A stretch of 63,443 nt of DNA, counting the filler, from Octopus bimaculoides (Eukaryota): NCBI RefSeq assembly GCF_001194135.2. It is 6 parts of 6 records of this genome, joined end to end, with 100 filler letters (N's around TTAATTAATTAA, not from the genome) between each part and the next. Parts side by side here need not be neighbours in the genome. Positions count along the whole stretch, not along the records: positions 13,334 to 25,674 come from NC_069003.1; positions 25,775 to 47,790 come from NC_068982.1; 4 more parts are not named here. One strand, given 5' to 3'. The position numbers and the translations under genes were made by a program. Position 1 is the first letter of the stretch. The number at the start of each line of letters is the position of its first letter. Shown piece after piece: positions 14,791-46,145 of the stretch. The notes beneath the pieces were generated by a model. That model was given only the letters and a program-made list of their open reading frames with translations. It was not told the origin of the DNA and did not search any database.

Positions 14791-15157
14791 GTTTATATCC
14801 ATTTAAAAGAAGAAAGGAAAATGGAGATAAGGAAATTAATAACTGCTTAATATTAACAAATTGGTCATCTTCGCTTCTTACATCCGTTTCAATTAATATT
14901 GAATAATTTAATTACAAATCTGAGTCTGCTGAAATAAATTGATAGGTCCACTTATAACAAATAAAGGCACAGTTTTTTTTTCTGATGAAATTATACTCAT
15001 GTAACGTAAATGTAAATTTAATGTACAAATTTGGAATTAAATTATTGAGTATTAATTGAAACGGCTGTAAGAAGCGAAGATGACCAATTTGTTAATAATA
15101 AATAATTATTAACTTCCTTATCTCAGTTTTCTTTTCTTCTTTTAAATGGATACAAAC
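14791..15157. mobile_element. Inverted-repeat element (arms about 14791-14920 and 15028-15157) overlapping a hammerhead
   Basis: gtttatatccatttaaaagaagaaaggaaaatggagataagg...catccgtttcaattaat matches the reverse complement of 15028-15157 at roughly 85-90% by eye. Confidence 0.85.
14977..15074 (+). ncRNA. Minimal type I hammerhead ribozyme motif (PLE-type)
   Basis: CTGATGA 14982-88; stem II aattatactca/tgagtattaatt; GAAA 15058-61; stem III ACGGCTGT (self-pairing with G.U); GUA triplet; stem I ttttt/agaag. Confidence 0.7.
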
Positions 15158-15338
15158 CATACGCTTTATACAGACTATTGTTTTAAGGGAATTTCATTCC
15201 CCAAAATACTAGATATTGAACCAGTATTTCCTTGGATGATAACACCCCTTCACGAGGTTAACATATCCTCTAATAAAATTTATATGTGTTTATGTGTGTA
15301 CATATATATATATATACATATATATACATATATATATA

Positions 15339-15412
<74 letters not shown>

Positions 15413-16180
15413 NNNNNNNNNNNNNNNNNNNNNNNNNNNNNNNNNNNNNNNNNNNNNNNNNNNNNNNNNNNNNNNNNNNNNNNNNNNNNNNNNNNNNNNN
15501 NNNNNNNNNNNNNNNNNNNNNNNNNNNNNNNNNNNNNNNNNNNNNNNNNNNNNNNNNNNNNNNNNNNNNNNNNNNNNNNNNNNNNNNNNNNNNNNNNNNN
15601 NNNNNNNNNNNNNNNNNNNNNNNNNNNNNNNNNNNNNNNNNNNNNNNNNNNNNNNNNNNNNNNNNNNNNNNNNNNNNNNNNNNNNNNNNNNNNNNNNNNN
15701 NNNNNNNNNNNNNNNNNNNNNNNNNNNNNNNNNNNNNNNNNNNNNNNNNNNNNNNNNNNNNNNNNNNNNNNNNNNNNNNNNNNNNNNNNNNNNNNNNNNN
15801 NNNNNNNNNNNNNNNNNNNNNNNNNNNNNNNNNNNNNNNNNNNNNNNNNNNNNNNNNNNNNNNNNNNNNNNNNNNNNNNNNNNNNNNNNNNNNNNNNNNN
15901 NNNTATATATATATATATATATGTATACAGAGAAAGAGAGTGACTTAGGCAGAATCTGCATAACACAGTACATGATGAAGATGAGCCTTTGAATTAGAAG
16001 TACACCTATATATGACGGCTTCCGGTTTCCGGCGTTCCATTTCCGCTCAAAAGACTCGAGTAAATGGCCAAGCTGAAGCAGAAAAAGAAACAACTACCAA
16101 GGTGCCATGCAATAGAATCGAACTTGGAATTTCACGATTGCGAAGCGAATTTCTCAATCGAATAGCCATGTATACGCAGC

Positions 16181-16239
<59 letters not shown>

Positions 16240-16618
16240 TACATATACACACACGTATATACCCGCGTACACGTACATATGGCTGTATGTGGTGGTACAT
16301 GCAACTACATACATCCAGACAAATATACACACATACTCATACATATATACAAATGCAGGCACATACATAGAGAGAGAGAGAGCAAGAGAAAAAGAGAGAT
16401 AGAAAGAGAAAAAGGGAGAGAGAGAAAGAGAAAAGGAGAGAGAAAGAGAATGAGGGAGAGAAGGAGAAAAGGAGAGAGAAAGAGAATGAGGGAGAGAGAG
16501 ACTTGTAACAGAGAGAAGATAAAACAATCAGTTTTGAACTGAAAACTTATTGAATTGTTTCTTCCCTCTATCTTTCTCTTTCTCTATCTCTCTCTCTCTT
16601 TCTCTCTCTCTCTTTCTC

Positions 16619-16654
<36 letters not shown>

Positions 16655-17147
16655 CGTCCTTTTCTCTCTTTCTCTCTCTCCTTCTCTATTTCCCTCCTCC
16701 TCTCTCTCTGGCTTCTAGTTCAATTTCTCACATCCACTCTCCCCCTCCAACTTACTTCGCTTGTCTCTCCTCCTACTTCTTCTTCATCCTCTCCCTCCAT
16801 CTCTTCATATATACATTCATCGTCTGTCATCTTTTGCACCTTCACTTCTCTACTCCACTTCCTCCTTTCCCTCTTCTCTTTCTCATTTTATTTCTTACTT
16901 TATCACTTTCTTTCTGTCTCTCTCTCTCTCTCTCCCTCTTCTTCACTTGCCATGTCTCTTCTCCCTTCTTTTTCCATTTCTCTTTCCTTATGACCCCCTC
17001 TGCTTTTCCCACCTCCTCCCCTCCTCTCTCGCTTCTTCCTCTTTTTCTTTCTTCTTCCATGTCTTCCCACCCTGCACCTTTCCCCCAGTCCCCTGTTCCC
17101 CTTCCTCTCCCCTTCATATCAGCTTTATTCCATTTCCTTTTTTCACC

Positions 17148-17212
<65 letters not shown>

Positions 17213-18402
17213 GCCTCGTTCTCTCTGTCACACTCTTCGTTTTATTGTTCCACCATTAATACCACCCTCGCCACTTACCACCACCACCACCAACAGCAAC
17301 AATAACAATCTCTTTCTCTTATCTCTACTCAAAATCTCGGTAATCCACAGATTAAACGTGTGCAAAGCCGTGTGTTAACTGGTTGTATTTAAAACGAGAG
17401 TGGTTTTCTTTTTTGTGTGTGTGAGGCTCTCAAAAATCCCCACTGCCATGAGAATGAATTAATTTCACAGATTTTAAACATAACACGAACTCTAGACAAT
17501 TATTTCGCTTCCATTTATTTATTCTTCCATTTCACTCAGCAGACGATCGACCGAACGATCGACCGACCGACCAAGTCGACCAGCAGACGACATCTCTTAC
17601 AACGCCATCTTGACAGTAATTCTAAGGCGCTATCAATAATAACTTGGCGCAAAGCTGCATAATATCGAAACTAAAGAAAACTAGGCGATTTATTCCAATG
17701 GATGTAGAGTTATCCATTTCCTTCTTTCTACGTCTTTCATTATTTTATTTTATTTTCTTATGTCTCCTTTCTTTTTCTTTCTTATCTTTCCTCTTCCTCT
17801 TCCCAGTTCTAACGCCATCATAATCATCATCATCATCGTCCACAACACCAGCATCATAGAACATCATAGAACATGATAGAACATCATAGAACTGGAATAA
17901 CATAGAAAAGACAGGAAAATAAGAAAGTAAAAAAAACAAGCGATATAGAAAGAAAAGATTAGGGATAAATATACATTCATTGGAATAAACCCAGTTTTTT
18001 GGTTTTTTGTTTAGATTTTTGGCGGGGGCTTTTCAGCATTTCGATACGATGCAGCTTTGAGTCAAGTTCCCAAAGAAAACTATACTAGCTATTCCAATGG
18101 ATGTAGATTTATCCATTAAATTCTTGCTACGTTTTCCCATTTTCTTTTTTTCCTTCTATCGTTTCGCTATTCTATCGCTCTCCTAGTTCCTCTTCTATCT
18201 GCTCTCCTCTCAGTTCTATCAATAACGTCAATAATATCACCATCGTCTTCTCTATTCTGCTCTTCTACACAACCAATACACAATAGAAAGCTTGTTTTTT
18301 TCAATTAAAAAAGATAAGAAGGAGAGGAAACGGCCGAAACCGAAAGAGTGAGGAAGAAAGTTTTACAAAAGGAGGCGGTAATGTGTGCGTTCATGTGAAT
18401 GC

Positions 18403-18454
<52 letters not shown>

Positions 18455-19382
18455 NNNNNNNNNNNNNNNNNNNNNNNNNNNNNNNNNNNNNNNNNNNNNN
18501 NNNNNNNNNNNNNNNNNNNNNNNNNNNNNNNNNNNNNNNNNNNNNNNNNNNNNNNNNNNNNNNNNNNNNNNNNNNNNNNNNNNNNNNNNNNNNNNNNNNN
18601 NNNNNNNNNNNNNNNNNNNNNNNNNNNNNNNNNNNNNNNNNNNNNNNNNNNNNNNNNNNNNNNNNNNNNNNNNNNNNNNNNNNNNNNNNNNNNNNNNNNN
18701 NNNNNNNNNNNNNNNNNNNNNNNNNNNNNNNNNNNNNNNNNNNNNNNNNNNNNNNNNNNNNNNNNNNNNNNNNNNNNNNNNNNNNNNNNNNNNNNNNNNN
18801 NNNNNNNNNNNNNNNNNNNNNNNNNNNNNNNNNNNNNNNNNNNNNNNNNNNNNNNNNNNNNNNNNNNNNNNNNNNNNNNNNNNNNNNNNNNNNNNNNNNN
18901 NNNNNNNNNNNNNNNNNNNNNNNNNNNNNNNNNNNNNNNNNNNNNNTGTGTGTGTGTGTGTGCGCGCTCGCGTATCTGTGTGTTTGTGCGTGCGGATATG
19001 TAAATGTGTGTATTCGTTTATATGAGTTTTGTCTATGTGTGCTTATGTGAATGTGAGTGTGTGAGTGTTTATATGTGTGTGCGTGAGACTGCGCATGTAT
19101 GGGTGTGTGTGGTTATGTGAGCATGTATTTGTTCAAATATACACACATGTGAATGTGTGTACGTATATGTAAACGTCTGTAATGAATGCGTGTATGTATG
19201 TGTGTGCTTATGTGTGTTACCGTCTGTGTGTATGTTAATATGCGCGTGCTTGTGAGATCACGTGCTTTTCTAGGTATTTCCATGAATGTGCACGTTCGTG
19301 TATATGTATGTGTGCATGTATGTATATGTGTAAGTGTGTATGTATCTATCTATGTATGTATGTGCGTATGTGTGTATGTACG

Positions 19383-19417
<35 letters not shown>

Positions 19418-20238
19418 GTGTGTATATATATGTGTGTAAGCATGTATGTATGTGTGTATGCATATGTTTGCGTACATCTGTGTATGCATGTATGTGTGTG
19501 AGTATTCATACATGTGTGCATGTATGTGTGTATGTATTATCGTGACTGTGAGTGTGTTATTTAGTGTGTGCGTGTATGTCTTAATGTGAATATATGTATG
19601 CGTACGTTATTTGACTATGAGCGTGTGTGTGTATGTATGTGCGTTATAAATCATAGTGTGTATGAGCGTGCGTACATGTGTGTGTGTGTGTGTGTGATAT
19701 TGTGAATATCAGTGTTTCTGTGAATAAGTGTGAATTAAAGATAAAGAGAAGGAAAGTGAGAGAAGAATAAGAATGAGAGAGAGAGAGAGTGGTATTGATG
19801 AAGGAGGGAGAGAAAGGGAGAAGTATAGTGGGAAGGGGCGATAATCAATAATTATATTTGAAAACATTAATACATGTCTGAAAGAAATCGAACAGGAAGT
19901 GGAAAGAGAGGAGGAAGTGAAGAGGTTAAAATAGGAAGGAAAGTGAAAGTAGGATTAAATGAGAGAAATATATATGGAAAGAGAGAGAGGGGGGGACAAG
20001 AGAGACAAAGAGAGAGGGGGAGCAAGAGAGAAAAAGAGAGGTGGAGATGGCGGGAGGGAGAGGAGGATACAGAGAGAAAGACATACAGAATGACAGAGAC
20101 AGAGATGAATAGAGAGAGAGAGATGGACACAGAGAGAAAGAGAGATAGAAAGAGAGGGGGGGAGGGGCACAAAGAGATAAAGAGAGAGAGGAAGGGGTAG
20201 TGAAGAATGGAGAGAGAGCAGGAGTGAGAAAGAAAGAA

Positions 20239-20274
<36 letters not shown>

Positions 20275-20275
20275 A

Positions 20276-20323
<48 letters not shown>

Positions 20324-20811
20324 AAAGAAAGAGAAAAGAGAGAAAGAAGNNNNNNNNNNNNNNNNNNNNNNNNNNNNNNNNNNNNNNNNNNNNNNNNNNN
20401 NNNNNNNNNNNNNNNNNNNNNNNNNNNNNNNNNNNNNNNNNNNNNNNNNNNNNNNNNNNNNNNNNNNNNNNNNNNNNNNNNNNNNNNNNNNNNNNNNNNN
20501 NNNNNNNNNNNNNNNNNNNNNNNNNNNNNNNNNNNNNNNNNNNNNNNNNNNNNNNNNNNNNNNNNNNNNNNNNNNNNNNNNNNNNNNNNNNNNNNNNNNN
20601 NNNNNNNNNNNNNNNNNNNNNNNNNNNNNNNNNNNNNNNNNNNNNNNNNNNNNNNNNNNNNNNNNNNNNNNNNNNNNNNNNNNNNNNNNNNNNNNNNNNN
20701 NNNNNNNNNNNNNNNNNNNNNNNNNNNNNNNNNNNNNNNNNNNNNNNNNNNNNNNNNNNNNNNNNNNNNNNNNNNNNNNNNNNNNNNNNNNNNNNNNNNN
20801 NNNNNNNNNNN

Positions 20812-20904
<93 letters not shown>

Positions 20905-21007
20905 CAGACGCCATTTTTAAATCAAATACAGCATAAGAAATGATAATCATTATTAGCATTAGGAAATCATCAACATCATCATCGTCGTCATCATCACCAT
21001 TATCATC

Positions 21008-21039
<32 letters not shown>

Positions 21040-22004
21040 TATCATCATCATCATTATTATTATTATTATTATATAATGTCTCAGAGTGTTATCATCTATA
21101 TTGTCCGGCACCATTATTAGTCGTGTTTGTATATTAAAAAAATAAAACGAAAAGATAGAAAGAGAGAGAGGCGTGGGGGAGGGAGAGAAACGGCAGGCCA
21201 ATTGATAATAATATTATATCTTCAAATATAAGAAATATCGTATTATGTCTTTCTTTTTATTTCTTGTTTTTTTTCTCTCTCTCCTTATTTAATTGTTTTA
21301 CCAACTTTTTTAAAAAATATCACGTACGATATTACACCAAATATAGATATTGTATCAATTGTCTGCTGTTACTTTCGATTATTGTTGTTCTTGTTGTTCT
21401 TGTTATTGATGCTGTGTGGGGTGGAGTTCCGCCTTTTACTTAGATATAAGTAAAAAAAAACTCAGCCATTTTGTTTGCGATTTTTCTCCGCCTCCTGTGA
21501 GAATTTTGGAGGATTTTCTTTTATTTTATTCTAAACAATCTGGTGGCGTCGTCTGCTGTTCGGACATTGGTGAAATGAACGAGTTTCAAATACTTAGAGA
21601 AAGACTTAATGGAAAATATCGAGAAAAAGATACCGAATGTAAATGAATAGCAAATATTTAGATCTTTATTTCCGTGTTCTATATAAGTGATTTTCTATTC
21701 AACTATCTATCTACCACTTTACCTATTCATTTATCTGTCTATATATCTCTCAATTTATTCGTCCATCTATTTATCTACCTATCTATCTGTCTGTCTGTTT
21801 GTCTTCCTACCTGTCTCCCTATTTGCTAAGCTACCAACTTATCCATCCACTTATCTACCTATATGCCTATCTCCCTTTCTACCTATCTAACTATCTGTAT
21901 AGCTACCAATTTATCTACCTATTTATGTGTCTGCCTATCAATCTATCTACCTATCTACCAATCTCTCCTTCAATCTATGCACCTATCTATCTATCTATCT
22001 ATCT

Positions 22005-22051
<47 letters not shown>

Positions 22052-23099
22052 CGTTTATGTTTGTTCCCCCACCCCCGCTTGACAACTGTCCTAAGAAGGA
22101 TAATAACCGAAAAAGAGAAGAATACGCAGCACGACGAATCACTCGATTAGTAAGCTTAATACCAATCACAAGAGTAGAAGTTCCAACAGAACAACGATAT
22201 TGGTAGTACAGACTTTGTTAGTATTTATAGAATAGATATAGAAATGCAAGGCCCCGGTGATGAGAGATTGGTTGAAGTTTGACTGTTAAAGCAAGACCAG
22301 TGATGTTAAAAACTCGCTTTGAATTTGGTCAAGGAGAAAGAAAGAATGTCAGCAGATGTGTCGGCCCAAATGTGATAACAATTTTCCTTACAAGGGCGAA
22401 AAAGAGATTTATAAAGACGAAAAATATACTTGTGGGGAAAGGCTATGTCGAACTAGATATATAGAGTCAACGTTCATAGCGGATGATTTGGCAAAAGAGT
22501 TTATATAACCGTTTCAATTAAGTTCTTTTGAAGAGGTTAAGCTTAAAAGACAACAGAACTAGGAATATCATGAGAGTTCTTGAAAAGATTAAATGGTTAG
22601 ATGTTTAGTTCTGACGGAGTTGAAAGTAACCAGAAACTGAGAAATGACTGATATCAGTGTCTGTGAATAGAAAATAATTCGCTCCATCCCACAGTGACGT
22701 TATTGAAGTTGAAGATGACGGAATCGAGACAGACGACAACATAATCGAGATTGAAGAGACCTCAATGAACCATCGAATGCCCGGTCAAGCCCTCGAGAAT
22801 CATTCGATTTCCACCCGACTAAAACGAATCAGACATCTCATTCAAGCAAGAATACAAAGAAAAATCTTCAAATGATGTCCAAAGGTTTTATTTGTTATAA
22901 TCCGAAAGAGCATAAATAAATAAAAACTAAGAACAAGAACGGACCGAGAATAGAGAAGAACTTTCAGGAACACCAGATGAGACGGAGAAAGTAGACGGAT
23001 GACAACTTCAATGTTACGTTCTCTCAGAAGAGATTCAAGAATTCTTCTAAGGATCTTTCCAGAAATTTCCTGACTTCGGCTTGTGCAAGAGATCAGTAT

Positions 23100-23330
23100 C
23101 GTTTTTCTTGTACTTGTTTCAGTCACTGGACTGCGGCCATGATGGAGCATCGCCTTGAAAGGCTTGAGTCGAAAAGATCGGCCTCCTCCGCCATTCTCCA
23201 ACGCTTGCGTATTTCTAAAGTCTGGTATGTAGTCTGTCTTTTTTTGTCGAACCGTTTGGTTACGAGGACATAAACAAACCAGCATTCGTTGTCAAGCGAT
23301 GGAGATGTGACACAGAGACAAAGATGCACA
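23100..23330 (-). mobile_element. SINE family B, 3' half
   Basis: cttgtttcagtcactggactgcggccatgatggagcatcgcc followed by the (TA)n gap. Confidence 0.8.
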
Positions 23331-24938: not shown

Positions 24939-24982
<44 letters not shown>

Positions 24983-25985: not shown

Positions 25986-26099
25986 TATATACGCATATAT
26001 ATATATATATATATATATAATTCAAATATTGAGGATGTAATTTCCTCGTAAGGATATCAAATATGTTATCAAATATATTGAAAAGAAGATGTTCCGCAG

Positions 26100-26907
26100 T
26101 TAATAAAGGAAAATAGAGAAGAAATATAGTCGACGCTCGGTTAATTTTATTTTATTTGTATGACGATGAAAGAAGTAATGAATATAAGATTCGGGATGTA
26201 AAGGAAACAAATCAGCAACAGAAATAAACATAAAAGAATCCTACATATGTTTCAATCTGGCCATTAGGCTTCGATCATCAGTATTCAAGCGATGTTAGAT
26301 TAAAATATGTCCGGATCTCATCAGGAAGTGAAATTTACTTTCTGGTGGTAAACAACGAAAAAACTAGAATGAGGATCGTGTTTTTAAATATTCAAACGTA
26401 AACAATAATTTATTAGGGCGCTGAGTTCATGTGAGGTGATATTATCTAATGAAATTTTGCTAAAATACTATAATGTACTTGATAAATAGACATTTAAGTG
26501 TTTAGTGATATAAAGTAGTCATTTAATTATAATATGGGCTGTTAAGGGTATTGAAGACAAATTGAGAGATGAAATAAATTTTTGAGGGGGAAAAACATAA
26601 AGGATTTGGAAAATAAAGTGAAAGATAATTCTATATTATATAATAAGATAACTATTAATTATTTAACATTTGAATGTACTAACGTATACATTCCATTATT
26701 CAGAGAAAAAGTTATTGTTTACTTACTTCGGCGATGAATTAAGATTTTTATGCGAAACATATGTAGGACTCTTTTATGTTTGTTTCTTTTGTTGGTTTCT
26801 TTCCTTTACATACTGAATCTTATTTGTATTACTTCTTTCATCGGGATACAAATAAAATAAAACTAACCAAGTATCCACTATATTTCTACTCTATTATCTT
26901 TTATTAA
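26100..26907. mobile_element. Inverted-repeat element (arms 26100-26253 and 26754-26907)
   Basis: gaaacatatgtaggactcttttatgttt...tatttctactctattatcttttatta matches the reverse complement of 26100-26253 at about 80% by eye. Confidence 0.8.
26239..26327 (-). ncRNA. Degenerate type I hammerhead motif
   Basis: Minus strand reads ttc CTGATGA gatc (long loop) gatt GAAA catatg TA gga. Stem III ACATATGT is a perfect palindrome. A second CTGATGA at 26275-81 is an alternative 5' core. Confidence 0.5.
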
Positions 26908-27230
26908 ATTTATATATATATATATTATATATGTAAATTGACGCATATGTGTGCATACACACACTCACACACACACACGCATATATATATATATATAAAA
27001 TAACAAACGAAGGAAAAGAATTCCTTCAAAAGGGTGTGTAGAACATACAATTCACTGGAACGTCAGTTGAATACCACATAAATATGGCTATAATGCAAAT
27101 TATAAACAGTAAATTAAATAGAGATTCAATCGACAATCCAATAATTTATTTATGTTATAATATAACATAATCTACTATGAATATAATATAATATAATATA
27201 AGATAACATTAAAAAATCATTAAAAAAACA

Positions 27231-27318
27231 AAATAGCCAACAATCTGTTTCGACTTATATGCATTATTTGATTTATAAACAATACATATCTTCTTATATA
27301 AGTCTCTTCGGAGCTTTG
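27231..27318 (-). ncRNA. Type I hammerhead motif with a U4C core mutation
   Basis: Minus strand reads agct CCGAAGA gacttatat...atataagtc GAAA cagattg TT ggct, with a perfect 9-bp stem II. Confidence 0.6.
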
Positions 27319-27812
27319 GTTTATCGACAGACGAAATTCCGTGTGAAAGGACGGCTGGATTGTAAAAGAATTAATTCAAATGCCTATATATTATGAGCGT
27401 GAGCGTTAACTTTTTAACTACACAACAATTACAATTAAAAACACAACAAAATTATAACGGACAAAATAATTAAGTAAATAGAATCTATAACTATCGAAAT
27501 ATATTTCTATATATCTCAAATAATATTAATCTAAACTCGTTTAGGTCGAAGATAATCTTTTGCTATTATAATAACATACTACAACAATATATAGGTATAC
27601 ACAAGTATCAGGGTCTTACTTAATCTAGAGACTGTAATAAAACGTGGAAATAAATGTAAATGATAATATACTATTATATTGGTGACTAACAAAAAAAGTT
27701 CTTTATTTATTTAGTTTATCGGAGGGAGAATTCCGTAATAAATATGAAGAGAAACCTAACAAAAATGTTCTTTATTTACTTAATTTATCAAAATTTCGCC
27801 TGTCGATCAACC

Positions 27813-27900
27813 AAAGCTCTGAAGAGATTTATATAAGAGAATATGTATTGTTTATAAATAAAAAAAAATGTATTTAAGTCGAAACAAATTGTTGGCTATT
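27813..27900 (+). ncRNA. Type I hammerhead motif with an intact core
   Basis: agct CTGAAGA(27819-25) gatttatat...atttaagtc GAAA(27881-84) caaattg TT ggct; GUU triplet. Confidence 0.7.
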
Positions 27901-28128
27901 TTGTTTTTTTTAATGATTTTTTTTAATGTTATATTATATTATATTCACAGTATATTATGTTATAATATAGCATAAATAAATTATTGGATTGTCGATTGAA
28001 TCTCTCTTATTTATTGTTTGCATNNNNNNNNNNNNNNNNNNNNNNNNNNNNNNNNNNNNNNNNNNNNNNNNNNNNNNNNNNNNNNNNNNNNNNNNNNNNN
28101 NNNNNNNNNNNNNNNNNNNNNNNNNNNN

Positions 28129-28188: not shown

Positions 28189-30015
28189 CCAACAACACCG
28201 CTTTACGGAAATGTGTCCCTGAAACGTTTAACCTCGCGTAGAATTCCGTAAAGCAAGACCTATTTTCCATTGACTTTTCATGTCATGAGTACAACGTTAA
28301 TGGGCAGAGAAACTAATGATAAATACGTTTCATGTTAAGGAATTCTAAGTAACAGTATAATTTTTCAAAGAGTCAATGCTTCCTTAATGTCTGCAAATGC
28401 TTATGAATAATGATTAATGTACAAGATCAATATCACTTGCTTATGACCCATTCAAAAATAATTGAGAATAATTGTAAAGACTATGACGTGAGCGATATTT
28501 GAAGATAGTCACATGCTTTTATTATTGTCTGTTATCTGAATGAAATACATCTGCTTATATTATTGTTATTTTTCCTTGTACTTCCAGTCATTTTTACATT
28601 GCTTTCTTTCACGACGTGTTTATTTAAAATTCAAACAAATTTTTCTTCCCTTTTTTTTATTTTCTCTATATTTTTTTTAAAATATATTTCCTAAGAAATA
28701 TATTATACTGAAATATTGTCTTATTGTATACTTGATTAAAAATGAAACAAATTTAGAGAAAATAGTTTTTTTTTTTTTAATAAATTAAAAGTGATTCATT
28801 CATATTGGTAACAGTAATTTTCAAACAGGTGGTTTTTTTAAAACTGGAATTTTTTTTTTCTTTTTCCATTAATAATTTAATCAAATATTCGATACATATG
28901 CTTATTTGTTGATATTAAATAATTTCTATTTCTTTTCATTTCCGAAGTATTTCACTAGACTATTTAGAGTAGATCTTATCGTGCGAATTGACAGATTGAA
29001 AAATTTTGATATTTCACTTTTTCTATTTCATTCTAGAAGGAGCTGGAAACTTCGAATTAAAAATATGTAAAATATAAAGACTTTAAAAAATTGTCTATTT
29101 TTGTATGATGTAAACATTGTTTTTATGTTACTTATTCATGTAAACAAATATAAGTATTTAAAATGGTTATCTGAATGGTTTACAAGAATTTATTGTTGTT
29201 GTCGTTGTTATTATTATTGGTATTGTCGTCATCATCATCATCATCATCATCATCATTATTATTATTGTTATTGTTGGGAACTGAGTGAAGTCATAGTATA
29301 ATACAACAATAAAAAAAAACGAGACAAAATATTGGAAAACGTCTCGTTCTTGCAACCTCTTCTAAATCTTGTTAAATAACAAACATTATAATAACTGGTG
29401 CGTTTACTGTTAATGCTTAACCAAGATTATCTTTGATTGTGCAAACCTTTGATTAAAGGCGTTCCTTCCTTGATCATATTCTTTCCCTTGAGAATACATC
29501 ATCCAACATGAAGACAGAAGAGAGCCCTTTAAATATAACTTCTGGCTATAGTGTAATAGTCACCAACCTTCGCAACTGACCATTTAAAAATCTCAAGGAA
29601 GATACCATATATATTCTATAAACAAACTAAACGAACCTCATAAAGACAACACTTTTAGAATCAGGCAATGAATTACTGGCGCCTGCTATCATAAAATAAA
29701 GAACATCGCTACCGCTAGAAGCATTCAGCTGTGGTTGAATTTATATACCAAGAACAAGCAGACCCATTTAACAAATAAACTGATATCAGTCGCAAAAGCT
29801 TAGTAATGATTGAGGCTTCTTAGACTCAACTAAGTGATGATAATTTATTTACAATTGTACTTTTTAAAAACACTCACTTGTCAATGAGTTCTGATTTCAC
29901 TCACAGTTTCATTTTATACAGATTTCAGTCACTGGACTGCGGTTATGCAAGAGTAACTTTTGAGCCGCCTAACTGGAAAATGTTGTCGTTTATCTTTTTT
30001 AACAGCATCAACAAT

Positions 30016-30109
30016 ATTTACATTATTTACATTTGACGGATATTTGTCCTCATCTTGTAAATAATGTAAATAATGTACATAATTACTCATCTCTTAAATA
30101 TAGAACTGT
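30016..30109. mobile_element. 94-bp insertion of the family D 3' tail with a 5' inversion and 12-bp TSD
   Basis: agcatcaacaat occurs at 30004-15 and 30110-21. Positions 30016-58 are the reverse complement of the tail at about 39160-39199, and the rest is forward. Confidence 0.8.
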
Positions 30110-30426
30110 AGCATCAACAATGTACCTTAAATGAAATAACTACGAAGTGGAATCGAAACCGAGTGGTGAATATCAACCTCTACGACCAAAGCATTCACTG
30201 CGTTACGAATGAAACAAACAAGCCTCTCGAAATATATGTTTAGAACAGCGTTTCTCGACCACGTTTTATCTACGATTCCTGTTTTACGTGGATTGTCATT
30301 TATGGCCGTTTGATGTTTCAAAAACACCTATCACGTTTTTGTAATTAAATATTATTAGGAATTGCATTTAAAAAATGTTAAAATATTTTTTGAATAGTAA
30401 ATGTATAACCAATTCATTACTCAAAA

Positions 30427-35141: not shown

Positions 35142-35193
<52 letters not shown>

Positions 35194-35446
35194 GTTTTCA
35201 ATCCATTTTTATGGTATTCCGTTCTTAACATTCAACCGAAAGAAGCTTGAAACGTATCCATGTTTAATGCTGTGACATTTCATATCATATATAGAAGCGA
35301 CGTCTGTGTATAACGTCATTTCCAATCCCAAACGTAATCATCAATGACATATTTTATGTAATGTTCTAACGACACGGATTCCAAGAATTTGAATACCAAG
35401 TAAACACTCATTATTTCATCAGAACGACACGTTAAATATAGGTTTC

Positions 35447-35888: not shown

Positions 35889-36599
35889 TGGATGATTAAG
35901 AAGTAGATCATTATTAGCTAGCAAGATACGAAAAATTAAAAGGCATATAACAATCTCCTTGATATTTAATTAAACTATTATTGGCCTGCAGGCAAATACA
36001 CAAACAGTACTGAAGCTGAAACATCAAAGAACTTTTCAAAATTAGTTTGTGTGTATGAGAAAGTTTTGAGCACAAGAAAAGTAGACAGCAAACATCAGAA
36101 ATGATACATTTCTTCCTATTTCCAAATGCTTACTGTGTACAGAATAAACATACGACCTAAACATCATCTGTGTGTGTGCACATATGTATGAATTATATAC
36201 ATACATATATATATATATATATANNNNNNNNNNNNNNNNNNNNNNNNNNNNNNNNNNNNNNNNNNNNNNNNNNNNNNNNNNNNNNNNNNNNNNNNNNNNN
36301 NNNNNNNNNNNNNNNNNNNNNNNNNNNNNNNNNNNNNNNNNNNNNNNNNNNNNNNNNNNNNNNNNNNNNNNNNNNNNNNNNNNNNNNNNNNNNNNNNNNN
36401 NNNNNNNNNNNNNNNNNNNNNNNNNNNNNNNNATATATCGGCCTGCCCTACTCGGCAGCGGAGTGACAATATTCGGAAACTAAAACAGTGCGAAGTGCAT
36501 GGTGATGCGAAGTGCATTGTGATGCGAAGTGCATTGTATGACAACTTTCGATAGTCTGGTCCATATGATAATTGATGATAGCCGTCCCATCAACACACA

Positions 36600-36885
36600 C
36601 ACCACACCCCATTACATAGCACAATCCCTCCGCTGATGACCCCCTCAGATGACTTTTAAGACCAGCTGCTGACTGACAGGGTTTGAAACACAAGTGACAA
36701 ATATTCTTCAAGTTTCTTCTAAATTCTTGCCCTTTGGAATCTGATTCTGAAGGAATGTTTTTATGAACTAGCATATGTCTTTTAAGTCCAGATATTGTCT
36801 TATAAGTTTTGCGACACAAGTCGTAAGAGATGCATAGAGTTCAAGATTATTACCAACCTGGGCATTTCGATTTTCATGTGACTTC
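36600..36885 (-). pseudogene. Two C2H2-like fingers, probably the C-terminus of an RTE-type LINE ORF
   Basis: DLCRKTYKTISGLKRHMLVH and CHLCFKPCQSAAGLKSHLR. There is no TGEKP linker, the first Cys of finger 1 is lost, and there is a frameshift upstream. Confidence 0.55.
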
Positions 36886-36892
36886 ATACGTG

Positions 36893-37350
36893 ACCAGTAA
36901 ATTCCACTACGGTAAATTCCACTCGGAAAATAGCGGTCTATAGCAAATTAATTACACACACCCTTGTTACACACTTCTTAACTAATTAGTCGTTAGTTAA
37001 AGTATAGGTTTATGCCATTATTACTCATTTTTTAACTGAATTTTACTGTACTGATAATTTTTTTCTGTTCAATTTAACTTTGAACTTTGAAACCCTCAAC
37101 CATGGCAACATTTGTAACTTCAGAGAAGAACATATGTAAGCTTTGCGATGAAGAGAATCATTTATATGAAAAGAATAGAGTTAACAGTAGCAAAACAAAA
37201 TTATATTGGCGTTGTGAATGGTTTTATAAAGGATGCCGGACTAGACTACATACAACTTTCAATTCCAGTGTACCGGAAGTTATTTTTTGGTCCTTAGTAA
37301 TAGAACTAACGTTTCTATACATCAACAGCTTACTCAACACCTTGGAGTGA
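36893..37350 (+). mobile_element. 5' remnant of a MULE-like transposon with a FLYWCH-type domain
   Basis: Repeated gtaaattccact motif at the left end. ACCATGG start at 37102 gives MATFVTSEK...HLYEKNR...KLYWRCEWFYKGCRTRLHT, truncated next to the maT element. Confidence 0.6.
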
Positions 37351-37373
37351 AGAGTTTGTAATTTTTGAAGTTA

Positions 37374-38284: not shown

Positions 38285-38379
38285 CAAGATGTGTTTCATC
38301 GAGGGAACAGGAAAGCTGCATTTGGAGTCATCAAAGTTGGGTTTGATAGATGCCTCGGGAAGCTGTTCCTCAACGAGAT

Positions 38380-38491
38380 GGGTGAGGTGGGTGAGGTGGG
38401 TGAGGTGGGTGAGGTGGGTGAGGTGGGTGAGGTGGGTGAGGTGGGTGAGGTGGGTGAGGTGGGTGAGGTGGGTGAGGTGGGTGAGGTGGGT
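38380..38491 (+). repeat. (GGGTGAGGT)12 minisatellite
   Basis: Perfect 9-bp tandem repeat. Confidence 0.95.
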
Positions 38492-38504
38492 GGCTATCTT
38501 TTAA

Positions 38505-38920
38505 TCTTTTACTTGTTTCAGTCATTGGTCTGCGGCCAGGCGGGGGCACCGCCTTCAAGGATTTTACTCGAACGAATTGGCTTCAGTACTTAATATTCCT
38601 TTTTTTCTTATTTCGTATATTCTGGTACTTACTCCATCGGTCTCGTTTGCTAGACCGACTGCTAAGTTACGGGAAAAGCAAACACTTCAACACCAGTTGT
38701 CAAGCGGTGGCGGCAAACAAACACAGACACAAAGCCGCACGCGCGCGCGCACGCACACACACACATATAGAAGCTTCTATCAGGTTTTGTCTACCAAATC
38801 CACTGACAAAGCTTTGGTCAGCCCAGGGGCTATAGTAGAAGACACTTACCCTAGATGCCACGCAGCGGAACTGAACCTGAAACCATGTGACTGAGAAGTA
38901 AAGTTCTTACCACATAGCCA
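38505..38920 (-). mobile_element. Full-length SINE family B
   Basis: Both halves are present around an internal (GC)/(CA) microsatellite. Confidence 0.85.
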
Positions 38921-38950
38921 TTGATTTGGTTTATTAATTATATTTCACTT

Positions 38951-39197
38951 ACAGTCCTGCGCATATGGCGTAGTGGTTAAGAGCACGGGCTACTAACTCC
39001 AAGATTCCAAGTTCGATTCCAGGCGGTGACCTGAATAATAATAATAATAACAACAACATCGAAAAATACCTTAGGAATGAGAACCCAGGTTCGAAATTTC
39101 CCCAAGACACATGATGAAGGCTGGAGGGTATATTAGCCGAAACGTTGAGTTAACAACAAACAAGATGAGGACAAATATCCATCAAATGTAAATAATG
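38951..39197 (+). mobile_element. tRNA-headed SINE family D carrying a hammerhead motif, with a 12-bp TSD
   Basis: A-box tggcgtagtgg 38966-76; B-box gttcgattcc 39011-20; TSD tatatttcactt at 38939-50 and 39198-209. Confidence 0.85.
39106..39151 (+). ncRNA. Minimal PLE-type hammerhead within SINE D (C3A mutated)
   Basis: gacac [A]TGATGA a ggctg gagggtatat tagcc GAAA cg TT gagtt; stem III palindrome ACGT. Confidence 0.65.
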
Positions 39198-40246
39198 TAT
39201 ATTTCACTTGTTTACTTTTGTAAAGCAACAGTCCTAAGTTTAAAGTAGGATTGGTAAATTGATATAAAGATTAGTAGCAATAGATAAATATTCAGGTGAA
39301 CAGAAAATTGACTAATCATTTAACTATAGACATTAAATATTCTTCTCAACATTGTTTCTCCTTAACAAGCAATACAAATTCCATCAATGAAATTTCACCC
39401 ACTTCACCTTTAGAATTAACCTTTAAAGCCACTCCACAGTCCGTGGATGGAGCACAATTTGTAGGCTACTCTGCTCTGCTATAAATGACACACACAGTTG
39501 TCCCTCCCTGGTTCTACCTTCTCTTTTCAGTTGACTGAATGTGAGAATATATAAAAGAGAAAAAGACATGAAGAACAGGTTGAACCAGAATCCAAAAGAT
39601 TATCATTGTCATATCTTTCTCTGCAGACTTGTCGAGTATAAAATTATAAATTACTGATATTTCATCTAGTGATAATAATTGTCTGAATGTAAATGTATTT
39701 ACGCGTACCAAGTGTCGTTCAACCGTTTCACATACATAAACATACGCGCGCGCGCACACACTCACACACACACATGCACTTACTCATCTATCTATCTATC
39801 TATCTATCTAGATAGATAGATAGATAAATAAAACAATAGAAAGTATACCCTGAAAAATCTGTTTCCTGTTTCAACAACCGGGTGATTGTATTCTTTGTTG
39901 GTTTCAAAAGGTGTTTTCACTCTATTTTTGCCAATATATCCAGTTATCGTTCTTTCATGTCGAACTTTAAGATATCTGTGCAGATGAAATATATAACTGG
40001 TTTTTTTTTTTATATTTTATACTCTAGAAATGTAGAATTCTTTCCGGGTGAAATTTGTAGTTTTAGAATCATCATACAGGAATTACAAATATTAAAATGT
40101 ATTCTTCCATCAACATTGTAATTAAAATAACCAAAATCACGGAATTAACTCACAGTAAGAAAAAAGTGAATACGCCAGAGACAATGACTCTTGGATGAAA
40201 AGATAAAATTCAAAAATTAAGATTCCAGTGAATCAGACCAAGTTTC

Positions 40247-40833
40247 GGATCTTTTTTAAAACGGGGGCCACATTTTTCATTAACGAAACACTTTGAAACT
40301 TGGAACACTGGTAGAATGTGTCATATAAAACATCTTTTTCTCTTAGTCTTCTTTAAAAAAAAAGAAATCCATAAGTTATTCCATGTTAAAGTTGTCGTAT
40401 TTCTGTAATTTCAACCAATCACTGACGTCCATTCAGCCGATATACATTAAGTGCCGACTACATAAACAAACGATTCTGAAACAATTAACCCTAACCCTAA
40501 CCCTAACCCTAGGGTTAGGGTTAGGGTTAGGGTTAGGGTTAAAGCAAATTTAAAATGAAAAAAGCAAATAAAACGAAGGTATGGAGATTAAATACGCTTT
40601 ACATCGCTTAATCAGCCAAAGGAGTAAATGTAAACAACTGAATACTTGTCAGTGATTGGTTGAAATTATCGAAATAAGACAATTTTTTACATGAAATAAA
40701 TTCGAATACAAAAATATTTTTCTGTTCTATAATGCAAAATAGATAAGTATACAAAGTTTGAAAGTCTTTCCGTACCAAAAAACACTACGTAACACATTAA
40801 TGAAAAATGTGGCCCCCGTTTTAAAATAGATCC
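40247..40833. mobile_element. 587-bp MITE with about 38-bp TIRs, an 8-bp TSD and a central telomeric palindrome
   Basis: TSD caagtttc at 40239-46 and 40834-41; TIR ggatcttttttaaaacgggggcccacatttttcattaa and its reverse complement; inner IR aatttcaaccaatcactgac. Confidence 0.92.
40485..40542. repeat. (AACCCT)4-(AGGGTT)5 palindromic telomeric repeat
   Basis: ttaaccctaaccctaaccctaaccct|agggttagggttagggttagggttagggttaa. Confidence 0.95.
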
Positions 40834-41499
40834 CAAGTTTCACTTGAAGTCATAAAAAAGATCCAGAAACAGCTGTAGAAAACCCCTGAAGGAAAACAAA
40901 ATTCTTTGCGGAATTGCTATCTGAAACTTAGGAAACAGTTTTTAGAAGAGAATAAAGAAAGAGAAAGCAACTTCGGACAGATGTTATCTTCACTAATGAA
41001 TCAAGATCCTCTCTTTCCTCTTTTAATCATCAAAGATCAAAAGGTTTAATTATAATGGAGTGGAGCTTTTTCACCTGTCAAGATACTAAATACTTTCTTT
41101 CCCACAATGAAAATATCACTGCACAATATTTTTAAAGAAAAAAAAAACATTATAAGAGTCTTATAATGTCTTTTTCTTTTGTAAAAGTTCATCTAATTCA
41201 AACAAGACTGACAACAGAGTTAGTTGGACATAGTGTTGTTAATTCTGTCCAATTAATATTTTGCTAAAATAATTAGAAGCAATAGTTAAGTGGTTAAGGT
41301 TAACGATAATAATTCAAAGCAAAATTATAAAGAACTTTTAAAATAAGAATACTTAACTTGTTTAGATCGTAAGTATAGTCAAAATTCGAGACTGCATTAG
41401 GAATGAGTCTTCTGAATTTAAAACATTCGCCGGGAGTATAACTAAAAAGAGTGAAAACCGTCAGTTATTAATTTGGGTTAATCAAATTTAATATTGCTA

Positions 41500-42720
41500 A
41501 ATATCTAACTAGATTTGATTTCATCGATGCTCCGATGACCACTGGTATTTTTTTCGGTCTTCGTATTCCAAATTCTGTTGATTTCGCTCTCCGAGGCTTT
41601 GGACTTGATCAATATGTCTGTGACTTTCATGGAACTGGGACTTTTTCCAGATATACACCTCATGCCTTCCTGTCCTTGATAACGATGTCCGTCTTGTTGG
41701 CGTTTACCTCTCTGCCATAAACTAAGCATAGCCCAAAGGACGGTGACGCAATTGTTGCTAGTCACAGTGTTTCGTTGATGTCTATACCACTTCTCAGTTA
41801 TCTTGATTCTATAACTTCTGCATATTTTCTGGTTTAGGTACGCAGTTACCTTGTTAGATCTTCGTGGAGGTATGCTCGGTCTGCTACTTTCAGGCATCCA
41901 AACAATGTGGCCGATGGTTTCTTCATACGCTCCACAAATCTTGCATTGTGGGGTTTGTTTCATCATAGATAATGCGATGACAACATCTGTTTGCAGGACT
42001 TTGATTTCGTGCGTCGATTATGGGAGTTTCTGTGTCTGCTTTAACTCCAGTACTCTTAAACCACTTGGTTCACGTCTACAACCTCTATCCATTTTAGGTG
42101 CTTCTTGTACATTACATTATCTCCAGTTGATGCAGGCCTTGCTATTTCGTATTCTGTTTCACTCGTTGGACTAAATGGTTGTTGCCTTGTTTTCCGTTGG
42201 CAGGATTTTTATGGTTTCAAATATTTCATCAAATCCCTGATGATACTTTACAATTTGGAGGAGCAGATCTTATGACTTTTTCTTTATTAGTTATGCATCC
42301 GATCTACAATCTGATAATCTTGAAAGTCAGCTCAAGATGAGGTAAGCATTGTCCTTCTGAAGCTTTTGGTAGATGCAACCTATCGATATCTCCTTTCGGG
42401 TGGAGCATCTTCTCTGTGGTTAGCATCTGTTTTTCTTGGTGATATTGGAACAATATGTCACCACAGATATTGGCTGAGTGTTAATGGATTTAAATTTTCT
42501 TCGTCGCAGTTAATTCACTTTTCAACTAGCAATAACCACGCCTCGGATAACCCCTTTTCATATACTACGAAACATTATGATCTGAGTTCAAGTTCTGCTG
42601 AGATTAGCTTACCCTTTAGTCCTTTAGAGATCGATAAACTATATACCATTTATATATTGCAGTCAAGGTAAGCAAGTATTGTATTCTCTATTGAAATGCG
42701 TTACGTGTGCCAATGTTAAT
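41500..42720 (-). pseudogene. Decayed R4/Dong-clade non-LTR retrotransposon (RT thumb, CCHC knuckle, RLE endonuclease)
   Basis: Minus frames read HPKGDIDRLHLP, KWFKSTGVKADTET, QCKICGAYEETIGHIV, KTDIVIKDRK and KIPVVIGA, with many stops and frameshifts. Confidence 0.85.
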
Positions 42721-43149
42721 AAGTAATATTATACCAACAGTTTTATTCAAGCAATCTCATTAAACCGCCACTTGACGTCCATAATTAATATGGTAGAATG
42801 ATTTGAAGTAAATGCTTGTACAATCCAGTTTCGTTTCTTCAATGGAATTGTGTTTACTTACATTAATAATTCTTCCCCAAACTACGAAAGTTTGAAGCTA
42901 TGAAAAATAGATATATGTACATCATTTTCTGATTGAATTTCAGTTGCTTAAATTAATTCCTGGATATTTTATAAGTTCACATTTTACAGTTCTGTTTGAA
43001 GGTGCTTTAATTTCGTTACAACATAAATAGTAAAACATTGCTGGACAACAAAAACAACAATACAATACTAAGGGTAACAAACGCGAAAGATAATACATAA
43101 AAATGAAGAAACCTCTAAGTAATTATATCAAAAAGTTCACTGCAATGAA

Positions 43150-43528
43150 TTATTACCTCTGCCTTAGCGAAGGCGGAGGTATTGTTTCCAGTCGTCTTTG
43201 TTTGTTTGTTTGTCCGTGGACAAGATATCTCAAGAACCGCTGGATGGATTCGGATGAAGCTTTCAGGGATGTTTGGCCTCATGACTGGCACGAACTGATT
43301 AGATTTTGGGATCGATCCGGTACCGCACAACGATTTTGGATTATTTTTCCGGGTTTTTTTTTTTTTTCACTTAATTTTGGAGAGCGGTCGGTTTCATATT
43401 TAATATTCGCGTTTGTGAGAGCAGTTTATTTCAGATATTCTCATTTTAAAAAAATCATCTCTGGCTAATCGTTGAGAGGACGTTGGTGTTGCCTTGGCGG
43501 AGGTTTGCGCTCTCCGAGTACTCCTGTT
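43150..43528 (+). mobile_element. Non-autonomous Helentron-associated element (HINE/DINE-1-like)
   Basis: 5' ttattacctctgcc...ggcggaggt; (TTTG)n microsatellite; 3' ccttggcggaggt plus hairpin gcgctctccgagtact and TT ends. Confidence 0.75.
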
Positions 43529-43564
43529 AAGAATATAAGACAAAGATAATATTGGTAAAGCCAG

Positions 43565-44265
43565 TGATGCAGCGAGCTAGCAGAATCGTTAGAAGGTAAA
43601 GGGCGAAATGCCTAGCGGCAAAAGATACCGCTGAGCATTTCGCCCTTTACGTTCTGAATTCAAATTCCGCCGAGGTCGGCTTTGCCTTTCATCCTTTCGG
43701 TGCCGATAAATAAATACCATTTGACCTCTGGATGGTCGATTTAACTGAATTACCCCCTCCTGCAAACTGCTGGTCTTGTTCCAAAATTTGAAACCAATAT
43801 AACAAGTAGAACTGAAGGTAAAAAGAAAAGAGAGCGACAAAAGCTTAAATATAAAGAACAATCTACATTATGAATTGGTTTTTAGGAATAATTGTCTCCA
43901 TCCGATCCGTGGAATCTGGTTCGTGTTTCAATCCGAGTTAGACACCCCTGCTCTAATGATTCTGTCAATCTGTACCCTGGATTGATATTTTATTTTACCT
44001 AACCCAGTGGGATTTAAACTGAAAATGTCAAGAACCGGAATAGATACCGGTTTCAAAATTTGGCACAGGGCCGGCAATTTCTGGGGACAGGGTAAGTCAA
44101 TTACAACGACCCTAGTAATTAAAATGATACTATTTTATCGAACCCCGAAAGAATGAAATGTTAAGTCGACCTCGGTGGAATTTGAACTCAGAACCTAAAG
44201 ACGGATGAAATGCCGCTAAGTATTTTGTCCGGTGTGCTAACAATTCTGCCATGTAGCCGCCTTAA
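43565..44265. mobile_element. Two SINE family A copies (43565-43800 plus strand; 44050-44265 minus strand)
   Basis: gcgagctagcagaatcgttag...ttctgaattcaaattccgccgaggtcg, and the reverse-complement copy. Confidence 0.85.
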
Positions 44266-45166
44266 AAACCGGAATAAATATCGCAAGGCATTTTGTCAAC
44301 TCTCCAAAATATTCTGTCAACTGCTTTTACGACTACGACTTATTTCTACATATGGAACCTATAAGGATGGGAGGAATACTTGACACAGACATGAATAAAG
44401 AACAGTGAAGGAAATAAACTGTTGTGAAGCATTTAGTTCGGCGCTCACATTTTTTTCTCTGCCAAATGTGCGATAACATTTCATTGAACAATTTCATACG
44501 GCGAGAGAAGCGAAAAGCACACGTCAACATGTATTCTTGGGCAAACATATATATACAGGCATATGAGTGCGTATACACTGACACATTTACAGAAACCTCT
44601 TACACAGGAAAACCACATACACGCACGCCCTCTAAATCATTCATCGCATAATAGTAATCAGATAGATGACTCCAAAACTCGAGTATATTTTACCACACAC
44701 ACACACATACACTCACTAGCCAGTGCAAACACAGACGCACAAGAATGAGCTGAAAGAATACATGTTGAGCCATATGCATTCATTCATTTACTCAATTTTA
44801 AATCGAAATTTCTAAACAGGGGTAATTGCCAGAACAGCATTAGTTTGAGGTTTGACTGCAAAGCTTTTTTTTTTATAGCAAGAAATAAAGATAATTGTAG
44901 GTTTAAAGCAAAAAGTAAAAATCAAAACAGGGTAAAGAAGTGAAAAATAAATGTGTCTGCCAATATGTCTCGGTAAATCATCCGCAATTATAGGATGAAA
45001 TAATTACAACTTAAGATAAATTGCTACCGCTGTTCATTATTATTCGTTACTGATGACGTTATGTCCGTTGTTGTTTAACTTCAAGGCATTCTACAGTAAG
45101 AAGACCTATAATATGGGTTTAGGGAAGCTTCTCTGCTATTTCTAGACAGTCGAACAGCTACGCAGA

Positions 45167-45197
<31 letters not shown>

Positions 45198-45728
45198 NNN
45201 NNNNNNNNNNNNNNNNNNNNNNNNNNNNNNNNNNNNNNNNNNNNNNNNNNNNNNNNNNNNNNNNNNNNNNNNNNNNNNNNNNNNNNNNNNNNNNNNNNNN
45301 NNNNNNNNNNNNNNNNNNNNNNNNNNNNNNNNNNNNNNNNNNNNNNNNNNNNNNNNNNNNNNNNNNNNNNNNNNNNNNNNNNNNNNNNNNNNNNNNNNNN
45401 NNNNNNNNNNNNNNNNNNNNNNNNNNNNNNNNNNNNNNNNNNNNNNNNNNNNNNNNNNNNNNNNNNNNNNNNNNNNNNNNNNNNNNNNNNNNNNNNNNNN
45501 NNNNNNNNNNNNNNNNNNNNNNNNNNNNNNNNNNNNNNNNNNNNNNNNNNNNNNNNNNNNNNNNNNNNNNNNNNNNNNNNNNNNNNNTATATATATATAT
45601 ATATATATAAATTATGGTTGAAATAGGCGCTTGGATTTTAATTCATTAATACGTGCACAATGCATGTACATTATTTTTGCTTATGGCGGTATGTATAATG
45701 TATTTTTCATTTATTTACGCTTCTGTAT

Positions 45729-45792
45729 GTTCCCGCTGATGATCGGAAAGGGTTTTTAATAACTCAAACCGTGAAATCTATAGATTTGGGAC
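45729..45792 (+). ncRNA. Type I hammerhead motif, variant with U.U at the base of stem II
   Basis: gttcccg CTGATGA(45736-42) tcgg...ccgt GAAA(45773-76) tctataga TT tgggac. Stem III lies in the palindrome AAATCTATAGATTT. Confidence 0.6.
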
Positions 45793-45824
45793 TACCCAAA
45801 CTATTTTGTAAATCCTCGCTGTCT

Positions 45825-46145
45825 ATTTTCCTTGCTTACAACCTTCTGTGGTAGAGTTATAATCTAAGTGGTTCATAGACCATTTGGGGTCTATTTCTAT
45901 CGGACTGGTGTTGTAATCATTCAGCACCCTTATTAGAATTTTAATATAAATTAACCATTATGATATTTTTAGTATGTTGTCCACTGATAAATCATTAAAT
46001 AACGATTTTATCCTATTTATGTATATTAAAATTCTAATAAGGGTGCTGAATGATTACAACACCAGTCCGATAGAAATAGACCCCAAATGGTCTATGAACC
46101 ACTTAGATTATAACTCTACCACAGAAGGTTGTAAGCAAGGAAAAT
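45825..46145. repeat. Perfect 124-bp inverted repeat with a 73-bp spacer
   Basis: 45825-45948 equals the reverse complement of 46022-46145, checked base by base with no mismatch seen. Confidence 0.92.

Follow-up and report, generated by a model that had tools for sequence, protein, structure and literature searches.

Minimal hammerhead ribozymes in an Octopus bimaculoides genomic stretch: probable ends of Penelope-like elements and a high-copy SINE

Introduction

Metazoan Penelope-like elements (PLEs) carry hammerhead ribozymes in their pseudo-long terminal repeats. Such motifs belong to type I and have a short stem I, a long stem II and a palindromic stem III, and they occur in many unrelated families per genome, mostly as single motifs or opposite-strand pairs (PMC4209133). 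We observed the same features in a stretch of 63,443 nucleotides (nt) from Octopus bimaculoides (RefSeq assembly GCF_001194135.2), which consists of six parts joined by filler and is called the window below. The motifs in the window are minimal hammerheads of type I. They probably mark 3′ ends from several unrelated PLE families, decayed, 5′-truncated and often inverted; one lies within a high-copy short interspersed nuclear element (SINE) that has RNA polymerase III (Pol III) boxes and is probably copied by PLE enzymes. Statements about published systems refer to the parts of each source that were available to us.

Opposite-strand pairs of minimal hammerheads 100-700 bp apart have been described as probable truncated PLEs (Cervera and de la Pena 2014, PMC4209133). 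PLE insertions comprise an inverted 5′-truncated copy and an optional tail of 30-40 nt (Craig 2021, PMC8557442). In the Poseidon PLE, reverse transcription begins 111-118 nt into an open reading frame (ORF) that starts at the hammerhead (Frangieh 2024, PMC11167929). AT-rich or (TA)n targets and an element end ~90-150 nt past the hammerhead are common to these elements and the loci described here (PMC8557442, PMC11167929).

Three kinds of short non-coding element are also relevant. The schistosome elements Sm-alpha and Sj-alpha are short non-coding retroposons in which a Pol III promoter is followed by a type I hammerhead (review PMC6765202), and they appear to be the closest known analogues of the octopus SINE. 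They have canonical hammerheads and are often arranged in tandem, whereas the octopus SINE has a minimal, PLE-type hammerhead, is mainly dispersed and has a PLE-type tail and inversion. Animal non-LTR retrozymes are likewise non-coding, carry type I hammerheads and have been proposed to depend on and originate from PLEs (PMC7229834; bioRxiv 2026.07.22.740005). They form tandem units of ~150-400 bp with circular RNAs, with no Pol III head mentioned in the available parts of those sources, whereas the window has no tandem arrays. The octopus tRNA-derived SINEs OK, OR1 and OR2 (Ohshima and Okada 1994, cited in PMC4758252 and PMC4824008) share a tRNA-type head with the element described here, a likeness of type and not of compared sequence. 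Judged by titles and abstracts, the papers listed in our searches describe no hammerhead SINE or PLE-dependent SINE other than the schistosome case, and repeat databases (Repbase, Dfam, SINEBase) may already name the family. The text and one supplement of a 2026 octopus repeat annotation do not mention hammerheads or ribozymes.

Results and discussion

Hammerhead motifs exceed chance expectation

A preliminary description of this DNA had listed six hammerheads, each with the core CUGANGA. All six were present where it placed them, with cores at 14982(+), 26324(-), 27311(-), 27819(+), 39111(+) and 45736(+). A seventh motif at 51.9 kb, missed by that description, was the top scorer of our relaxed scan (Table 1). 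CUGANGA, GAAA and the UH triplet were intact in 4/7 motifs (15.0, 26.3, 27.9 and 45.8 kb). The core was altered in the other three: CCGAAGA at 27.3 kb, ATGATGA plus a stem I mismatch at 39.1 kb, and C in place of the U of UH at 51.9 kb. Stem III was self-complementary or nearly so, as had been reported: the motifs at 26.3, 39.1 and 45.8 kb have a perfectly palindromic stem III, whereas it is imperfect at 15.0, 27.3 and 27.9 kb. Stem I was weak at 15.0 and 26.3 kb, its 5′ strand at 15.0 kb having decayed into a T run. The description's further points, that the flanks are mutually unrelated (best blastn E = 0.04 among the six loci) and that three families have a long stem II, also held. The stem II inserts measured 53-69 nt, and the 51.9 kb motif has one as well.

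Table 1. Positions of hammerhead-bearing arms, motifs and SINE parts in the window
Feature	Position	Strand	Details
Short inverted arm, only hammerhead 3′ half and element end	14791..14922	-	118/132 bases match the other arm; outer end lost in N gap
Long arm with type I hammerhead	14923..15157	+	core 14982-14988, 69-nt stem II, GAAA 15058-15061, predicted cut after 15069
Long arm, intact-core hammerhead	26100..26750	-	core 26324-26318, 64-nt stem II, palindrome ACATATGT, predicted cut after 26242
Short inverted arm, 5′-truncated at GAAA, (TA)n end	26754..26907	+	133/154 identical to long arm
Short inverted arm, whole hammerhead	27104..27338	-	core mutated to CCGAAGA (27311), 9-bp perfect stem II
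Long arm with hammerhead	27340..28023	+	core 27819, predicted cut after 27893; end lost in N gap
Second insertion of the 39-kb family, 94 bp	30004..30121		exact 12-bp target duplication
Full-length SINE-like element, 247 bp	38951-39197 within 38939..39209	+	exact 12-bp target duplications 38939-38950, 39198-39209
tRNA-like head	38959..39025	+	A box 38966-38976, B box 39010-39020, 33 nt apart; no intact cloverleaf
Minimal type I hammerhead of SINE	39107..39150	+	private defects 39111, 39134, 39148; predicted cut after 39146
Intact-core hammerhead	45731..45791	+	10-nt perfect palindrome, 5-bp stem I; outside adjacent inverted repeat
Inverted repeat	45825..46145		arms 130 bp (128/130 identical), spacer 61 nt
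Seventh hammerhead	51832..51922	-	core 51918, 8-bp stem II with U.U base and 64-nt insert, 4-bp GC stem I

AT content is high in the window, which is animal DNA with many microsatellites and N gaps, and the common repeats are presumably octopus-SINE-like. We regard chance matches in such DNA as a very improbable source of the motifs. A strict descriptor found three sites (15.0, 26.3 and 27.9 kb) and none in each of 100 local dinucleotide shuffles, in line with the excess over shuffled sequence that the earlier claim required. A scored descriptor, devised after the motifs had been seen, found six sites against a shuffle mean of 0.25, a count reached by 0/60 shuffles; it misses the 45.8 kb motif and adds the one at 51918(-). 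These comparisons reject chance for the set, and family-majority letters mend all three defects of the 39.1 kb motif (see below). On the side of chance, the 45.8 and 39.1 kb motifs fail the strict descriptor, and allowing one core mismatch gave four sites against 0.62 per shuffle, with four reached by 1/100 shuffles. Whole-motif folding was unremarkable for most motifs (z -2.2 to +0.6) and weak for 5/6.

The inserts in stem II folded as extended hairpins at 27.3 kb (z -3.6) and 51.9 kb (z -3.4) and weakly at 15.0 kb (z -1.8); those at 26.3 and 27.9 kb had no extended-hairpin fold. An intron within the long stem II was considered and dropped, GT..AG fitting at 15.0 kb only. Metazoan PLE hammerheads have a helix II of 6-8 bp with no such inserts mentioned in the available parts of that survey, whereas four families here have 53-69 nt from core to GAAA (PMC4209133). 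A search with Rfam over the window returned 117 matches at E ≤ 5, none of them a hammerhead, and recovered 0/7 motifs. Because Rfam misses hammerheads with long stem II inserts, counts in such genomes are likely too low.

Inverted loci share the geometry of truncated PLEs

The motifs had been said to sit in or beside inverted repeats. We observed that 4/6 independent loci were no more than 100 nt away from a local inverted repeat whose arms reach at least 100 nt. Such repeats cover 7.8% of non-N bases (binomial P = 0.0005, with thresholds picked after data inspection). At 15.0, 26.3 and 27.3/27.9 kb, two arms of unequal length stand back to back with the hammerhead near the outer end. One arm is long and the other is cut off within or just before the hammerhead, and the 3′ ends point outward. 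The part shared by both arms ends at least 88 nt (15.0 kb), 142 nt (26.3 kb) and ~140 nt (27.x kb) past the predicted cut, with N gaps hiding arm ends at 15 and 27 kb. Arm identity was 86-89%, so these insertions are old. At 26.3 kb the hammerhead is followed by a 43-codon frame that is open in both arms, which is consistent with an ORF start; this frame, at 26.1 kb, had no atlas match. The long arm continues beyond the shared end towards a (TA)n tract, and the locus is suggestive of an optional tail.

Each of the three loci looks like a single decayed insertion. Their geometry is the published footprint of 5′-truncated PLEs and not that of tandem retrozymes (PMC4209133, PMC8557442), and hammerhead-plus-inversion relics of this kind are mostly known PLE debris. 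The PLE link and the palindromic stem III proposed in the preliminary description hold, and they were already published (PMC4209133).

That description had further proposed small ORF-less, retrozyme-like families. For the inverted loci, we consider it unlikely that they are dedicated families spreading as circular or tandem RNAs with PLE enzymes. Three observations would suit such families: the motifs at 26.3 and 27.9 kb had no detected coding remnant in the 430-480 nt upstream of them, the unit at 51.9 kb measures just ~200 bp, and the SINE family has one head-to-tail joint (39199->38961) among the joints listed. Retrozymes have also been reported as PLE-end derivatives (bioRxiv 2026.07.22.740005). 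However, there were no tandem units at any locus in the window, the tandem structure that defines retrozymes being absent. The hammerheads correspond to the minimal form of PLEs and not to the canonical form of retrozymes, and the decay of the arms could mask short ORF ends. The proposal fares better at 39.1 kb, where the family is ORF-less, high-copy and probably PLE-dependent.

The motifs at 45.8 and 51.9 kb

These two motifs share a U.U pair at the base of stem II, followed at 45.8 kb by 3 bp, and both are flanked by (TA)n tracts. The unit between the tracts spans 45.61-46.17 kb in the first case and measures ~200 bp in the second. A (TA)n tract within 500 nt on both sides was found at 6% of random positions. 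Neither locus has an inverted 5′-truncated copy with outward 3′ ends. Reading frames at 45.8 kb gave no protein-search candidate in one case and no atlas match in another. In the 45.8 kb hammerhead, the 3′ strand of stem I shares bases with a hairpin at 45783-45800 (TTTGGG-ACTA-CCCAAA), and competition between the two folds is possible.

The 45.8 kb hammerhead lies 34 nt outside near-perfect arms (128/130 identical). An improbable reading of the inverted repeats is that they are fold-back DNA transposons (miniature inverted-repeat transposable elements) unrelated to the hammerheads. It is more plausible for the repeat at 45825-46145 than for the others, and the window has other inverted-repeat units without hammerheads (40244-40836). 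Against it, both arms at 15, 26 and 27 kb include the hammerhead or the 3′ half of it, and their centres lack symmetry.

The 39.1 kb hammerhead type adjoins PLE proteins in some metagenome contigs

Searching metagenome contigs for hammerheads of the 39.1 kb type gave at least 123 stretches, and 122 loci were analysed; some loci overlap, L018 and L019 being one place. A PLE endonuclease domain ended 60-106 nt before the motif on the same strand in 9/55 motif rows with at least 700 nt upstream, among the matches listed. In L018, an endonuclease domain lies between the two motifs of an opposite-strand pair, and relatives of the L018 protein have reverse transcriptase (RT) domains. Another locus (L060:5064-7820) has an intact PLE-like RT ORF of 919 amino acids in a tandem arrangement, ~1 kb downstream of a minimal hammerhead. 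Since PLE endonuclease and RT adjoin it in these loci, the 39.1 kb hammerhead type is a PLE type.

A Pol III-box SINE carries a minimal hammerhead

The element at 39 kb combines a tRNA-like head with a minimal hammerhead between exact target duplications. Its A and B boxes deviate from the Pol III consensus (taken from PMC8969392) by one mismatch, which was equalled in 0/100 shuffles. The family is thus a SINE and visible to SINE annotation, contrary to the preliminary description, which overlooked the Pol III head. Over its first 8 bases, the window copy agrees with the reverse-complemented tail end at 7/8 positions, and a contig of another organism does so at 8/8. At 30.0 kb, the second insertion consists of an inverted tail-less 3′ piece (30016-30058) and a forward piece with a 33-nt tail (30077-30109). 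Rfam over the SINE found no hammerhead and no tRNA. A minimum-energy cofold of two SINE motifs did not yield the dimer fold.

We examined the family in public sequencing runs. Among 24 runs listed, 18 from four organisms contained at least half of the SINE's words, and four runs from three organisms were aligned to 38900-39420. We excluded from the evidence two insect-metagenome RNA runs that contained 0.09 of the words. The DNA runs gave 18,775, 26,083 and 26,334 contigs on the SINE, and the RNA run gave 8,205 reads. Summed contig depth over the hammerhead was 2-7 million versus 12-47 on the single-copy flank, a ratio that means only 'very many' and is not a copy number. Majority letters mended the three defects of the window copy: core C3 in 3110/3187 RNA reads (and at 96-99% of contig depth), the stem II G-C pair in 3545/3645 and the stem I A-U pair in 3410/3894. 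The same letters carried 95-99% of contig depth. The family-majority hammerhead is a perfect minimal type with a 4-bp stem I and a 5-bp stem II. Per-position counts, among the positions listed, showed 10-29% variation at the free core position N7, and CpG decay at G12 (10-26%) and at the stem III C (15-32%). A 3-nt deletion at the predicted cut (39146) marks a subfamily that made up 243/3976 RNA reads and ~0.1% or less of contig depth.

SINE copies either end at 39196-39199 or run into a tail, for which 2,040 RNA loose ends gave a consensus at 0.67 agreement; it is the 33-nt tail seen at 30.0 kb. Findings on joints refer to the 15 of 91 joints listed. All four runs had opposite-strand joints 38961/39149, in 14 reads with 9 starts in the RNA run and in 4, 5 and 11 contigs in the DNA runs. 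Loose ends that precede 38961 fold back onto the SINE head. Both the optional tail and opposite-strand joints recurred in three organisms. No circle joint confined to RNA was found among the SINE joints listed. The inverted joint at 39149 lies two bases from the first base after the cut; it may reflect cleavage products or clipping at a private mismatch. The window has five short inverted arms, none of which begins at a cut site.

Mobilisation of the SINE

On this sequence evidence, the 39-kb family is most likely a PLE-mobilised SINE. In a fuller form, for which we have a slight preference, it would be a Pol III SINE moved by PLE RT and endonuclease to ~100,000 copies across several related species. 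Its source genes would keep an intact hammerhead though they need no release from a longer transcript; the fold would be part of an RNA signal bound by the PLE protein, and occasional in vivo cleavage would give inverted pieces that start near the cut.

Several observations weigh against PLE ancestry of the loci or PLE mobilisation of the SINE. Searches with Pfam, a profile, tblastn, a position-specific scoring matrix (PSSM) and the atlas detected no remnant of a PLE protein at the loci of the window. Pfam, applied to 74 of 191 open frames and to three regions translated through their stop codons, found no PLE domain. A profile built from 188 endonuclease stretches of one clade, with tblastn, found no remnant in these short, decayed loci, and with a C-terminal PSSM the targets ranked 49 to 4988 among ~107,000. 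Compared with PLEs, then, no RT or endonuclease sequence is detectable here, and the 45.8 kb locus does not fit the PLE pattern cleanly, its hammerhead being outside the arms (PMC8557442, PMC11167929). We found no autonomous partner that shares the SINE 3′ end. A protein search with the frame that starts in the SINE hammerhead gave no candidate, and the SINE hammerhead pattern had 0 matches in viral and prokaryote collections. ARAGORN at thresholds 100-80 and Rfam identified no source tRNA for the head. In the metagenome contigs, 46/55 motif rows had no endonuclease match upstream among the matches listed. The SINE ends only ~51 nt (tail-less) or ~85 nt (tailed) past the cut, versus ~90-150 nt in PLEs (PMC8557442, PMC11167929). 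Many SINE copies also end in repeats of a 9-nt unit, in the style of SINEs driven by long interspersed nuclear elements (LINEs). RNA starts or ends did not pile up at the predicted 39.1 kb cut (one RNA-seq run, 6% read, with both mates equally on either strand). Two segments that by eye resembled GIY-YIG C-termini, at ~27.47-27.56 kb (+) and ~26.48-26.56 kb (-), were unsupported by profile, tblastn and PSSM and do not count as evidence.

The 9-nt unit, the 12-bp target duplications, the lack of a partner PLE, and the CpG decay at G12 and the stem III C in many copies would all suit a tRNA SINE of the ordinary kind, mobilised by a LINE, which had at one time acquired a PLE end, with the hammerhead as a passenger. 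LINE twin priming inverts a different, upstream segment, so the shared 3′ end of both 30.0 kb arms, with a tail on one only, counts against this origin, as do the optional tail and opposite-strand joints in three organisms. We consider it a rather poor prospect beside PLE mobilisation.

For PLE mobilisation, the following steps are envisaged. For the SINE, the A and B boxes would direct transcription by Pol III, and the 3′ ~135 nt of the element, comprising the hammerhead and the end, would serve as the PLE-binding and priming signal. The PLE protein would nick both strands of AT-rich DNA and prime reverse transcription on each, beginning at either of two sites ~30-40 nt apart downstream of the hammerhead. 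Two cDNAs that stop early and join head to head would leave back-to-back arms of unequal length, in some copies a tail, and duplicated target sequence. For the hammerhead, cutting is predicted only in dimer form or when a protein assists. Full-length SINE copies run through the cut site, which indicates that uncleaved RNA was the template. Uncleaved template RNA and the lack of RNA-seq ends at the cut site are both shared with PLEs, the latter as in the anole element (PMC11167929).

Cleavage had been expected to leave RNA ends at the predicted sites, which the 39.1 kb site did not show in the run above. As 72% of the 8,205 RNA reads continue into unlike sequence, SINE reads are mostly read-through. 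Ribozyme activity of the window motifs appears doubtful on two grounds, the altered cores in 3/7 and this lack of a pile-up.

Overall, the window likely holds mostly known PLE debris and one variant new to the literature searched. SINEs are classed by their LINE partners, and a PLE-driven SINE, if true, would widen this scheme. The 135-nt 3′ part would then be a natural minimal substrate for a PLE RT. The SINE also opens to testing why PLEs retain hammerheads that are dispensable for insertion in vitro (PMC11167929).

Other features of the window

An inverted-repeat unit at 40244-40836 has near-perfect outer arms of 40 bp and central inverted TAACCC/GGGTTA telomere-type repeats (40486-40540); it looks like a DNA-transposon derivative. 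Decayed frames at 41508-42300 (-), without a Pfam match, are presumably like the C-terminal zinc-knuckle and nuclease region of R4/Dong-type LINEs. Weak C2H2 zinc-finger matches and a FLYWCH match above cut-off were observed at 36451-36840 (-) and 37084-37347 (+), which are probably transposon remnants. A CTGATGA..GAAA at 36633 looks like a chance occurrence. A 60-bp inverted repeat (9446-9505 / 9821-9880, 97% identical) had no detected hammerhead. At 57500-63443, related units form a long array in tandem, in which many open frames are near-identical.

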